18,942 nt of DNA. Origin: a virus. Its lineage: Duplodnaviria; Heunggongvirae; Uroviricota; Caudoviricetes. The stretch lies in IMG/VR virus record IMGVR_UViG_2690316321_000005, one strand, 5' to 3'. The notes beneath the pieces were generated by a model. The model did no database searches. It saw nothing but the letters and a program-made list of their open reading frames with translations, and was not told the DNA's origin. Of this stretch, positions 14,119-17,961 are shown piece after piece. Position numbers and translations under genes: made by a program. Numbering within the stretch: position 1 is the stretch's first letter; each line of letters starts with the position of its first letter.

Positions 14119-14303
14119 ACGCCACAATTCAAACGATACCAGAGCTTCTTATCCAGACACGAGGAGATCAGACCGAAGTGGCGAGGATGCTTTCCTGCGC
14201 AAGAGGAACAGTGCTCAAGTACAACCGAGACAGCAAAGGCGAGCGTCACGTAATAGTTAACGGCGTCCTGATGGTCAAACAGGGCAAGAGGGGAAGACCA
14301 TGA
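14115..14303 (+). CDS. ninH: NinH-like protein
   Basis: 62-aa ORF MNATIQTIPELLIQTRGDQTEVARMLSCARGTVLKYNRDSKGERHVIVNGVLMV...; parallels lambda NinH (..TIPDMLVEAYGNQTEVARRLKCSRGTVRKY...) as recalled. Confidence 0.7.
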   Translation: MNATIQTIPELLIQTRGDQTEVARMLSCARGTVLKYNRDSKGERHVIVNGVLMVKQGKRGRP

Positions 14304-14923
14304 GACTCGAAAGCGTAGCTAAATTTCACTCGCCAAAAAGCCCGATGATGAGCGACTCACCACGGGCCACGGCTTCTGACTCTCTTTCCGGTACTGATGT
14401 GATGGCTGCTATGGGGATGGCGCAATCACAAGCCGGATTCGGAATGGCTGCATTTTGCGGTAAGCACGAACTCAGCCAGAACGACAAACAAAAGGCTATC
14501 AACTATCTGATGCAATTTGCACACAAGGTATCGGGGAAATACCGTGGTGTGGCAAAGCTCGAAGGAAATACTAAGGCAAAGGTGCTGCAAATGCTCGCAA
14601 CATTCGCTTATGCGGATTATTGCCGTAGTGCCGCGACGCCGGGCGCAAGATGCAGAGATTGCCACGGTACAGGTCGTGCGGTTGATATAGCAAAAACAGA
14701 GCAGTGGGGGAGAGTTGTTGAGAAAGAGTGCGTAAGATGCAAAGGCGTCGGCTATTCAAGGATGCCAGCAAGCGCCGCATATCGCGCTGTAACGATGCTA
14801 ATCCCAAACCTTACCCAACCCACCTGGTCACGCACTGTTAAGCCGCTGTATGACGCTCTGGTTGTGCAATGCCACAAGGAAGAGTCAATCGCAGACAACA
14901 TTTTGAATGCGATCACACGTTAG
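14300..14923 (+). CDS. Q: Late gene antiterminator Q (lambda-type)
   Basis: 207-aa ORF MRLESVAKFHSPKSPMMSDSPRATASDSLSGTDVMAAMGMAQSQAGFGMAAFCGKHELSQNDKQKAINYLMQFAHKVSGKYRG... with zinc-binding CRDCHGTG...C..C.G, recognised as near-identical to lambda Q. Confidence 0.95.
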   Translation: MRLESVAKFHSPKSPMMSDSPRATASDSLSGTDVMAAMGMAQSQAGFGMAAFCGKHELSQNDKQKAINYLMQFAHKVSGKYRGVAKLEGNTKAKVLQMLATFAYADYCRSAATPGARCRDCHGTGRAVDIAKTEQWGRVVEKECVRCKGVGYSRMPASAAYRAVTMLIPNLTQPTWSRTVKPLYDALVVQCHKEESIADNILNAITR

Positions 14924-14965
14924 CGCCATGATTGCCACGGATGGCAACATATTAACGGCATAATA

Positions 14966-15010
14966 TTGACTTTTTGAATAACTTTGGGGAAACTTGACAC
15001 CAATAATGGG
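14966..15010 (+). promoter_or_regulatory. Late promoter pR' with overlapping qut region
   Basis: TTGACT (14966-14971), 17-nt spacer TTTTGAATAACTTTGGG, then GAAACT, closely paralleling the lambda pR' region TTGACTTATTGAATAAAATTGGGTAAATT as recalled. The -10 is degenerate relative to lambda. Confidence 0.5.
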
Positions 15011-15202
15011 CGTTTTTTACATGTCATTGATGAGTCTCAATAACCTGCCGCCGAGTAGTTTTTATGCTCTGAATTGTATTTGTGTAGTAAACATGCTGAC
15101 TGCAATGTAATAGAGTTTTTTTAGCCTGTAACCTCTTGACGGCATTGAATTGCTTTTGTTATGAGTTGTAAGCCAATGTTATCATCTTGTATTGGGGTGG
15201 TT

Positions 15203-15919
15203 ATGAAGGATGGTGCACTGCTCAGGAGTTCTTCACTTTTTATTGCCTACATGGGATGCCTTGGATGGGGGAGTGCTTATTTCTATGGATGGGGTACTTC
15301 TTTTTACTACGGCTTCCCATGGTGGATTGTAGGTGCAGGTGTTGATGATGTTGCCAGAAGTTTATTTTTTGCAGTTATCGTCATTGCTATATTTCTTATC
15401 GGTTGGGGTATTGGTGTTGTATTCTTTTTCGCAGTGAAAAGAAAACATTCTATGCAAGAGCTAAATGTATTTCGCCTTTATTTTGCTGTGGAATTATTGT
15501 TTGTGCCGGCAATTATTGAGTTTTCTATATTGAGACAGAAGATTCAGGTACCTCTTTTGCTACTGTCAGCAGCGATTGCGCTGGCGGTTACAATTTCGAT
15601 AAGATCTTATGGGCGATTTTTATCGGTATCATGCTTCTATGATAAGCCATTTATAAAAAAACATTTTTTTGAGATTGTGATGATTGCTTTTGTGGCATAT
15701 TTCTGGCTTTTTTCATTTCTGACAGGATATTACAAACCGCAGTTTAAGAAAGAATATGAAATGATTAATTATAATGATGGTTGGTATTATGTTCTTGCTC
15801 GTTATGATAATTGTCTGGTTTTGTCTACTTCTTTCAATGCAGGTAGTAAAAGGTTTGTCATTTATCAATCAGCACAAGATAAGAATCTTCAGGTTGATAT
15901 TGTAAGGACCAGAATTTAA
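15203..15919 (+). CDS. Hypothetical multi-pass inner-membrane protein (about 238 aa), AT-rich moron between Q and the lysis cassette
   Basis: The track ORF starts at 15161; ATG at 15203 is preferred because it has a G-rich SD (GGGGTGG) and lies downstream of a candidate extended -10 (TGtTATCAT, 15177-15185). The product has several long hydrophobic segments and aromatic-rich loops (GWGSAYFYGWGTSFYYGFPWWIV). Composition is clearly more AT-rich than Q or the lysis genes. Confidence 0.65.
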   Translation: MKDGALLRSSSLFIAYMGCLGWGSAYFYGWGTSFYYGFPWWIVGAGVDDVARSLFFAVIVIAIFLIGWGIGVVFFFAVKRKHSMQELNVFRLYFAVELLFVPAIIEFSILRQKIQVPLLLLSAAIALAVTISIRSYGRFLSVSCFYDKPFIKKHFFEIVMIAFVAYFWLFSFLTGYYKPQFKKEYEMINYNDGWYYVLARYDNCLVLSTSFNAGSKRFVIYQSAQDKNLQVDIVRTRI

Positions 15920-16349
15920 TTGGCTGCATAAATAATATTTTAAGTTGCAAGTTGGCTATTCGTAGGAATAGAACCTTAGGCATGCTGAATGCGTTTTCTG
16001 AACATTGTTTTATAAACTGTGTCTGCTTGCTGTTGTGATCCTGCTTTTAGTGATGGTGATGATGGATTTCACCAGCAGGATAATGTTGGTACTGACTGAT
16101 GGCGCTCTGGTCTGCGGCATTGTGGTATTGCTGTGGCCGATGATGAAAAAACAGAATGAATAATCCTTGACTTTTTTGTTTACTGTTTATTAAAAAATCA
16201 ACCGCATGGTGAATCCTCCTTGGAGGGGCTAAATGATCGAGTTTTAAGGGCACGTAGCGAGTTCTGTTTGATCATTGCAGAACTTAGCGGGAGGCGCCAT
16301 GCGTACATCACTAATGTTATTTCCTTCTATCATTTTCCTTGTGAGTTCT

Positions 16350-16377
16350 GGCTGCGCATGGCGCGGCCTTTTTTTTA
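16350..16377 (+). terminator. Intrinsic terminator in the Q-to-holin intergenic block
   Basis: GGCTGCGC-atg-GCGCGGCC (8-bp stem with one G-U pair) followed by T8. Confidence 0.55.
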
Positions 16378-16554
16378 TGACCTGCCACTGGCAGATGGTC
16401 ATCCTGTGATTTGATTCCGGTTCCGGCTTTTTAACTCTGTTCCTGTACACGGGAGAAATTCTATGTCGATTAATCGTTATGATATTGGTTACAAGAAGTA
16501 CCACGTATTGTGTTGAGATAGAAAGCCTGGTGCCAGAGGTAAATGCAGCAGCAT

Positions 16555-16605
16555 AATAAAAAAGAGCCAGCGCAGAAGAGAACGGGTAAAAGAGTCTGCG
16601 CTGGC
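16555..16605 (-). terminator. Intrinsic terminator oriented for leftward (minus-strand) transcription
   Basis: Perfect 11-bp stem GCCAGCGCAGA / TCTGCGCTGGC (16566-16576 and 16595-16605) with an 18-nt loop; the minus-strand transcript continues with UCUUUUUUAUU. No U-run follows on the plus strand. Confidence 0.5.
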
Positions 16606-16784
16606 GTGGGGATATTCCCCGTGGAGAAATGATATGTAACACACATCGGGAACCTTTCTATATAAACATTATCATTATTGTCAATCATAACAGTCAGGTA
16701 TTATGACGTTTATGCATCAGGGCCATCAGGAATTAACTGGTGGCTTTTTATTGTTGTCAGCTTCCGGATAACGGGAGACGGGGT

Positions 16785-17000
16785 ATGTACCAGATGGAAA
16801 AAATCACAACAGGTGTGTCATACACCACGTCAGCGGTGGGGACGGGATACTGGCTACTGCAGTTGCTGGACAAAGTCTCCCCATCCCAGTGGGTGGCAAT
16901 AGGCGTATTGGGTAGCCTGGTGTTTGGCTTGCTGACGTATCTGACAAACCTTTATTTCAAGATTAAAGAAGATAAGCGTAAGGCTGCGAGAGGTGAATAA
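16785..17000 (+). CDS. S: Class II holin / pinholin (phage 21 S-like) with dual-start motif
   Basis: Start at ATG 16785, internal to the track ORF, with GGGAGACGGGG SD. Product [71 protein letters not shown] (71 aa) has two TM segments and a charged C-terminus. Second start codon at 16794 (MEK..., 68 aa) gives the antiholin/holin pair. Confidence 0.85.
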
Positions 17001-17497
17001 TGTCGCCATCATTACGCAAGGCTGTTGCTGCTGCTATTGGTGGTGGGGCTGTTGCCATAGCGTCTGTGCTCATCACTGGTCCGAGTGGTGACGATGGCCT
17101 GGAAGGTGTCAGCTACATACCATACGAAGATATCGTTGGCGTATGGACTGTATGTCACGGACACACCGGAAAAGACATCATTCCCGGTAAAACGTATACC
17201 GAAGCAGAATGCAAAGCCCTCCTGAATAAAGACCTTGCCATGGTCGCCAGACAAATTAACCCGTACATCAAAGTCGATATACCGGAAACAACGCGCGGCG
17301 CTCTTTACTCGTTCGTTTACAACGTGGGCGCTGGTAATTTCAGAACATCGACGCTTCTTCGCAAAATAAACCAGGGTGATATCAAAGGCGCATGTGACCA
17401 GCTACGTCGCTGGACATACGCTGGCGGTAAGCAATGGAAAGGGCTGATGACCCGTCGTGATATTGAGCGTGAAGTCTGTTTGTGGGGGCAGCAATGA
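17000..17497 (+). CDS. R: SAR endolysin (T4-lysozyme-like muramidase, phage 21 R-like)
   Basis: 165-aa ORF with N-terminal signal-anchor-release segment [18 protein letters not shown] and lysozyme core (...[15 protein letters not shown]..., ...[27 protein letters not shown]...). Start overlaps the holin stop. Confidence 0.9.
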
Positions 17498-17961
17498 GCA
17501 GGGTAACCGCGATTATCTCCGCTCTGGTTATTTGCATCATCCTCTGCCTGTCATGGGCTGTTAATCATTACCGTGATAACGCCATCGCCTACAAAGAGCA
17601 GCGTGATAAAAAAGTCAGTGAGCTGAAGCAGGCGACCGCCACCATTACTGACATGCAGCAACGCCAGCGTGCTGCTGATGTACTCGATGCTAAATACACG
17701 AAGGAGTTAGCCAATGCGAAAGCTGAAAATGATGCTCTTCGGCGTAAGCTTGATAATGGTGGTCGGGTGCTCGTCAAAGGAAAATGCCCTGTGCCAGCCT
17801 CAGCCAAAACCTCCAGCTCCTCCGGCATGGGCAATGATGCCACCGTCGAACTCTCTTCAGTTGCTGGACGAAACGTTCTCGGTATCCGGGACGGAATTAT
17901 CCGTGACCAAACAGCACTGAGAACGCTTCAGGAGTACATCAGGACGCAATGCCTGAAATAA
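17494..17961 (+). CDS. Rz: i-spanin Rz
   Basis: Start ATG 17494 overlaps the endolysin stop (ATGA). Product [40 protein letters not shown]...[22 protein letters not shown]... closely parallels lambda Rz. Confidence 0.85.
17714..17920 (+). CDS. Rz1: o-spanin Rz1 (outer-membrane lipoprotein embedded in the +1 frame of Rz)
   Basis: ATG 17714 with AAGGAG 7 nt upstream; product [44 protein letters not shown]... with a signal peptide, lipobox-like VVGC and proline-rich mature part, as in lambda Rz1. Confidence 0.75.

Follow-up and report, generated by a model that had tools for sequence, protein, structure and literature searches.

A short leftward transcript in the Q-to-holin spacer of a lambdoid prophage is the Hfq-bound small RNA EcOnc32, with published interactions that point to entC

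The short leftward transcript encoded between Q and the holin gene of this lambdoid prophage is EcOnc32, a known prophage sRNA whose function is uncharacterized, and published interaction data point to a block of entC, a host gene for enterobactin synthesis. We consider it probable that the gene encodes an Hfq-dependent, trans-acting, base-pairing sRNA of Sp3/PP4-type lambdoid prophages that would repress entC. [quoted passage not shown] In the searched literature, the text of no paper discusses this RNA, whether under the name EcOnc32 or as ECs0817 or E2348C_1013. New here is the assignment, by sequence comparison, of EcOnc32 to the mis-annotated ORF E2348C_1013 / ECs_0817; we also add a paralogous relation to Esr41, agreement between two interactome data sets on entC, and a candidate Fur box.

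From 16528 to 16800 the window has zero differences from prophage Sp3 of E. coli O157:H7 Sakai and from prophage PP4 of EPEC E2348/69. Over 16100-16800 it departs from Sakai at positions 16149, 16165, and 16527 only, and PP4 is 99.4% identical to the window across 14444-17500. Because the sequences are the same, the experimental data obtained in Sakai and E2348/69 apply directly. EcOnc32 was reported at Sakai positions 901574-901662 on the minus strand, within Sp3; it came up in five data sets, its Hfq-CRAC score was very high, and northern blotting showed a band of approximately 112 nt (Tree et al. 2014, Mol Cell 55:199, Table S2). With the offset anchored on ECs_0817, these coordinates and the Hfq-CRAC peak fall at 16552-16640 on the minus strand of the window, matching in sequence, strand, and position. 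EcOnc32 also served as an annotation in the CLASH study of Waters et al. (2017), where 901660..901579 corresponds to window positions 16638..16557. The last nucleotide of the RIL-seq RNA2 reads that extend furthest 3', NC_011601 position 1060613, corresponds to 16557, right behind the U-run and inside the interval 16555-16566, where the earlier note had held that a minus-strand transcript must end. The length of the RNA is 91-95 nt when counted from the predicted promoter versus the approximately 112 nt estimated by northern blot.

The perfect 11-bp stem followed by a U-run that the earlier note described was found exactly as stated: its two 11-nt arms (16566-16576 and 16595-16605) are 100% complementary, lie 18 nt apart, and were the sole inverted repeat returned by a repeat search of 16400-16800. 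Directly 3' of the stem on the minus strand is UCUUUUUUAUU (16565-16555), and the U-tail UCUUUUUU attains the length of at least 6 nt expected of an Hfq-dependent trans-acting sRNA. A simple terminator scan missed this hairpin because its loop limit was 8 nt. With 18 nt (CUCUUUUACCCGUUCUCU), the loop (16577-16594, minus strand) is unusually large; it is kept in both clades of the locus and could serve as a second seed or as an Hfq contact.

The promoter named in the same note is likewise present, with TTGACA, a 16-nt spacer, and TATAGA at 16684-16657 on the minus strand, approximately 95 nt upstream of the terminator hairpin. This −35 hexamer and an A/T-rich −10 hexamer at equal spacing recur in diverged copies (TATAAA in loci L005 and L006) and in the paralogue Esr41. 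A promoter scan predicted a second candidate, CTGACT-18-GATAAT at 16697..16668, which lacks a counterpart in Esr41. Folding of the transcript, proposed earlier as a check, gave three hairpins for the 97-nt minus-strand RNA at −34.9 kcal/mol (z = −6.35), with 0 of 200 shuffled sequences as stable. Between hairpins 1 and 2 is a 10-nt stretch, AUUUCUCCAC, with a predicted unpaired probability above 0.9. The minus-strand hairpin, promoter, and fold signal at 16555-16700 exceeds chance. Coordinates of these and neighboring features are collected in table 1.

Table 1. Features of the EcOnc32 locus and the surrounding late region, in window coordinates
Feature	Position	Strand	Basis and remarks
Q	14300-14923		
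Membrane ORF	15161-15919		
DUF3927 ORF, 52 aa, hydrophobic	16005-16163	+	Immediately upstream of PasD1
PasD1 (EcOnc13, STnc100-like sRNA)	16204..16376	+	100% identical to PasD1 of E2348/69; exact match to published northern probe
“Hypothetical protein” ORF, 132 codons (ECs_0817 / E2348C_1013)	16244..16642	-	RefSeq; first 86 nt are sRNA
EcOnc32 sRNA body, ~91-105 nt	16557..16650	-	3' end at 16557 published; putative 5' end at 16647-16661
Intrinsic terminator	16557..16605	-	Stem 16605-16595 with 16576-16566; loop 16594-16577; U-run 16565-16557
Hairpin 2 (GGGGA-AUA-UCCCC)	16608..16620	-	Predicted fold
Seed CAUAUCAUUUCUCCAC	16621..16636	-	16630-16621 predicted unpaired; predicted to pair with entC Shine-Dalgarno and AUG
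Hairpin 1 (GAUGUGU-GUU-ACAUAUC)	16631..16647	-	Predicted fold; G-U becomes A-U in clade B; Esr41 hairpin at this place differs
−10 hexamer TATAGA	16657..16662	-	16-nt spacer from −35; TATAAA in clade B
Fur-box-like AATAATGATAATGTTTATA	16661..16679		15/19 versus GATAATGATAATCATTATC; candidate by consensus match, across promoter spacer
−35 hexamer TTGACA	16679..16684	-	Read from sequence; also in clade B, Esr41, and the aligned PasA/PasC loci
Class II (S21-like) holin	16787-17000		
Lysozyme	17000-17497		
Rz and Rz1	After lysozyme		

In all likelihood, the 132-codon ORF annotated over this transcript is a spurious CDS masking two sRNA genes, and approximately 600 of 5,426 complete E. coli genomes carry a “hypothetical protein” annotated over an sRNA gene in this manner. 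Were the RNA instead the 5' part of an mRNA, it would encode the 132-aa protein or the product of a 72-codon ORF (16470..16688), a reading that we regard as highly improbable. The CDS at 16244-16642 does stand in the original EPEC annotation and in the RefSeq annotation of hundreds of genomes, but both ORFs run through the strong terminator at which transcripts actually end. The sole Pfam match of the 132-codon ORF is a chance match below the cutoff, and a Pfam search assigned no family to the 72-codon ORF. In clade B, a 1-nt insertion in the terminator stem shifts the frame of both, and diverged copies of the longer ORF are annotated as frameshifted or partial. Moreover, PasD1 is antisense to the 132-codon ORF and is transcribed across it, and the RNA occupies the second position in 100% of its chimeras. 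We accordingly rejected a coding role for the 72-aa and 132-aa ORFs on the frameshift and the lack of a Pfam family, in line with the earlier opinion that the shorter ORF is probably not a gene.

In the published EPEC tables, E2348C_1013 has a baseMean of 2064 in DMEM RNA-seq and drops 7.5-fold without Hfq (log2[delta-hfq/wt] −2.91, padj 1.4e-23), an effect comparable to those of PasA and MgrR, while in LB its baseMean is 220 and its level is independent of Hfq (log2FC −0.24) (Pearl Mizrahi 2021). These data, from an identical sequence, establish Hfq binding together with hfq-dependent abundance in DMEM, with no such dependence in LB. The RIL-seq tables of the same study give E2348C_1013 eight partners, 900 and 304 chimeric fragments in two conditions, the second position in every chimera, and a longest U-tract of 6. 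Approximately 808,000 of 18.2 million RIL-seq fragments, or about 4.4% of Hfq-bound fragments, belong to EcOnc32, compared with 146,000 for ArcZ, 129,000 for Spot42, 107,000 for CyaR, and 26,000 for RyhB. Under conditions that induce virulence, few Hfq-bound RNAs of EPEC appear to be as abundant as EcOnc32. The absence of E2348C_1013 from the EPEC sRNA list likely reflects its CDS annotation and the fact that only four of its eight partners are CDS or 5'UTR, which is under the authors' 67% rule.

Such abundance invites the proposal that the main effect of the RNA is to occupy Hfq, shifting the host sRNA network as a sponge or competitor, and not to regulate specific mRNAs. A share of Hfq-bound fragments above those of ArcZ, CyaR, and Spot42 in an RNA with only eight partners would fit this proposal, as would the high CRAC hit score in EHEC and the action of AgvB and AsxR, prophage sRNAs of the same slot, on other sRNAs. 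However, none of the RIL-seq partners of EcOnc32 is an sRNA, neither the AgvB nor the AsxR model of Rfam matches the window, and the chimeras with entC combine high specificity with a long pairing. We consider Hfq occupancy an unlikely main effect; it is compatible with an action on entC, as the two are not mutually exclusive.

The strongest EPEC RIL-seq partner is the 5'UTR/start region of entC, with 263 chimeras in three libraries (p = 4e-165) (Pearl Mizrahi 2021). Its odds ratio is only 14, which is low because EcOnc32 is so abundant. Also recorded in those tables are 537 chimeras with the leader/start region of rpoS, 72 with a site in an nleB pseudogene, and 28 with the dnaK 5'UTR (Pearl Mizrahi 2021). 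In EHEC, RNase E-CLASH captured the seed of EcOnc32 (CAUAUCAUUUCUCCACGGGGAAU) linked to the RBS of entC (UUUUGUGGAGGAUGAUAUGGAUA) in one hybrid read (Waters et al. 2017). Two independent interactome data sets, EPEC RIL-seq and EHEC CLASH, thus agree on entC. Duplexes were computed in windows, replacing folds of whole-length RNAs that over-extended the pairing. The windowed duplex of entC with the seed is predicted at −27.6 kcal/mol (z = −3.2) and comprises approximately 15 bp with one bulged U over the Shine-Dalgarno and AUG, and the seed is itself predicted to be unpaired, so that an accessible seed coincides with in vivo chimeras. For dnaK, rpoS, and nleB, the best predicted duplexes lie in the 18-nt terminator loop and are no better than shuffles.

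EcOnc32 is embedded in the lambdoid late region that forms the right end of the window. A hydrophobic DUF3927 ORF precedes PasD1 and is kept beside PasD and TerB-like genes in related prophages. PasD1, an Hfq-binding sRNA, ends at a plus-strand terminator at 16350-16368. This end is 180 nt from the 3' end of EcOnc32, and the rightward PasD1 and leftward EcOnc32 form a convergent pair, an arrangement described for the moron site that follows PR' in Sp3 and further prophages (Tree et al. 2014, PMC4104026). The stretch 16488-16565 is homologous to the last ~80 bp and downstream flank of the sialate O-acetylesterase gene (nanS-p / yjhS) of Stx phages, and by this homology looks like the remnant of an esterase moron lost between PasD and the leftward sRNA. 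On the other side of EcOnc32 is a plus-strand intrinsic terminator (16719-16750, AGGGCCATCAGG...CTGGTGGCTTTTTATT), 40 nt upstream of the holin and homologous to a terminator of the PasA/PasC loci. In EPEC RIL-seq, the plus-strand RNA of the PasA-holin spacer occurs as RNA1 with PasB; by analogy, the stretch near 16719-16750 may also give rise to a short RNA directed rightward, away from the EcOnc32 promoter. A tRNA/tmRNA scan found none.

The earlier note had suggested that the transcript could time lysis or belong to a toxin-antitoxin-like pair. As to the second suggestion, a type I system would require a small toxin ORF with mRNA complementary to the RNA, and zero plus-strand ORFs overlap the EcOnc32 body; the start region of the DUF3927 ORF, 390 nt away, does not pair with EcOnc32; we rejected a toxin-antitoxin role, as a complementary toxin ORF is absent. 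The lysis suggestion would make EcOnc32 a cis-antisense regulator that pairs with the Q-antiterminated late transcript or the holin start and so delays or tunes lysis. The gene is indeed antisense to late transcription, and PasA, PasC, and EcOnc32 all lie immediately upstream of a class II holin. Moreover, two blocks of the seed are complementary to the holin Shine-Dalgarno and AUG (−19.7 kcal/mol, z = −2.45). Nevertheless, 137 nt separate the 5' end of the RNA from the holin start, leaving the holin RBS outside the RNA, and the holin pairing is interrupted and, once corrected for 18 tests, non-significant. Uninduced lysogens contain plenty of the RNA but hardly any holin mRNA (baseMean 5 and 1). 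Every recorded partner is a trans-encoded host RNA, and the paralogue Esr41 acts in trans from a non-phage island. Regulation of lysis in cis is in our judgment improbable. The recorded experimental partners (entC, the rpoS leader, and dnaK) are trans-encoded host mRNAs, as expected of an Hfq-dependent trans-acting sRNA.

At Rfam gathering thresholds nothing matched in the whole window. A permissive scan returned two sub-threshold matches: STnc100, at 16174-16379 on the plus strand (37.7 bits), and RF02676 (Esr41), which matched 16556-16645 on the minus strand over the full model at 32.3 bits (E = 4.7e-4), short of its gathering score of 102. Conversely, a covariance model built from EcOnc32 variants only, with Esr41 left out, recovered Esr41 at 29 bits (E = 2.4e-4). 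With models matching in both directions at E ~1e-4 over full-length alignments, EcOnc32 is, on sequence and structure comparison, a distant paralogue of Esr41. EcOnc32 and Esr41 / EcOnc14 are built alike: a TTGACA promoter is followed by the 5' hairpin 1, the (U)UUUCUCCA seed in single-stranded form, hairpin 2 of the GGGG/CCC type, and a GCCRGC...GCUGGC terminator. In contrast, the two RNAs have entirely different hairpins 1 and differing seed flanks, and a terminator loop of 18 nt in EcOnc32 compares with 7 nt in Esr41. The gene for Esr41 is located beside iha in the non-lambdoid island SpLE1 of EHEC, whereas EcOnc32 lies in a prophage late region. Esr41 represses cirA, chuA, and bfr and has an iron phenotype (PMC5286369); these targets are iron genes, as is the best EcOnc32 partner, entC. 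Hits of the Esr41 model have been found frequently near PasD (Zhu, Shabalina and Storz 2026 preprint), and presumably represent the EcOnc32 gene.

EcOnc32 shares its slot and orientation with PasA and PasC (EcOnc51/52), EPEC prophage sRNAs known from Pearl Mizrahi 2021 and from the 2026 preprint of Zhu, Shabalina and Storz: all three point leftward and directly precede a class II holin, and the published Table S6 gives the directionality as “> < >”. An alignment of the three loci shows homologous flanks: the −35 TTGACA, the ~80-bp esterase 3'-end remnant, and the plus-strand terminator before the holin. Their terminator stems are related (GCCAGC...GCUGGCU), and all three RNAs are Hfq-dependent and more abundant in DMEM. 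The seeds, however, differ and the RNA bodies cannot be aligned by BLAST. Under the EcOnc32 covariance model, the PasA locus reached only 19 bits and the PasC locus 17 (E = 0.03-0.07). An identity of EcOnc32 with PasA or PasC was rejected, as BLAST matches cover 14-15 nt of the terminator only.

Other known sRNAs are less close. AgvB and AsxR likewise come from prophages, are encoded in convergent pairs beyond PR', and run against late transcription, but they measure 51-60 nt against the ~95 nt of EcOnc32 and have no sequence or Rfam match to it. An anti-sRNA role like theirs was rejected given the absent Rfam match and the zero sRNA partners in RIL-seq. EvrS was set aside as a different locus. 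RyhB is, like EcOnc32, Hfq-dependent, and is an iron-homeostasis sRNA with a Fur box in its promoter, whereas the Fur box of EcOnc32 is a candidate only; the two lack homology, and RyhB stimulates the production of enterobactin, in contrast to the predicted block of entC translation by EcOnc32.

A survey of 5,426 complete E. coli genomes recovered EcOnc32 in 603, with an identity of ≥99% in 564. IMG/VR holds 67 loci with only 12 distinct sequences, which fall into two clades plus one truncated copy beside stx2i. Among GTDB species representatives there are zero EcOnc32-type copies and two of the Esr41 type, both in Escherichia/Shigella. Two diverged copies, L006 and L007 (E. coli STEC306 and CFIAFB20190172), closely follow the B-subunit genes of stx2 (e/i-type); L007 has its promoter and hairpin 1 replaced but keeps the seed, hairpin 2, and terminator. 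A MAFFT alignment of Esr41 with the EcOnc32 variants was mis-aligned and discarded. Covariation was a further check that had been proposed for the hairpin. Of the stem positions, 93.6% form pairs versus 31-53% in slid controls. The six double-sided changes all come from Esr41 in a model-fitted alignment and the remaining stem changes are one-sided, so that covariation proper lends weak support.

Spanning the promoter spacer, the candidate Fur box AATAATGATAATGTTTATA is the best match in the 18.9-kb window, and its score is equaled in 3% of whole-window and 0.45% of local shuffles; it is a consensus match within an A/T-rich promoter. The clade B promoter also scores 15/19, through different substitutions. 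The second-best match in the window is CATCATGGTAACCATTGTC (14/19) at 6964-6982. The approximately 9-fold higher abundance of EcOnc32 in iron-poor DMEM than in LB fits iron repression and is unspecific to it.

The mechanism we propose begins with a gene that is flanked by the moron region under Q control and by the holin gene and is directed against late transcription, whose putative sigma-70 promoter would drive a three-hairpin RNA ending at the strong intrinsic terminator. According to published data on the identical sequence, this RNA is made in lysogens, is very abundant on Hfq, has an Hfq-dependent level in DMEM, and is ligated in vivo to the entC translation-initiation region in both EPEC and EHEC. 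There the seed CAUAUCA(U)UUCUCCAC would pair with GUGGAGGAUGAUAUG of entC, blocking ribosome binding and lowering enterobactin output from entCEBAH. By analogy with the effect of Esr41 on cirA, chuA, and bfr, we infer that EcOnc32 represses translation of entCEBAH. More tentatively, the Fur-box-like site in the promoter spacer may make transcription iron-repressed.

It is possible, if doubtful, that EcOnc32 is a prophage-imposed, Fur-derepressed brake on siderophore synthesis, which at low iron would become the most abundant Hfq ligand and block entCEBAH translation, and which with Esr41 would form a horizontally moving “iron-rewiring” sRNA family. Lower enterobactin synthesis at low iron is counter-intuitive, which counts against the proposed repression of entC. 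Less likely still, the same seed might touch the holin start and tie lysis to iron status. If confirmed, a prophage sRNA that curbs enterobactin production would bear on iron competition, on colicin and phage receptor expression, and on the fitness costs and benefits of Sp3/PP4-type prophages.
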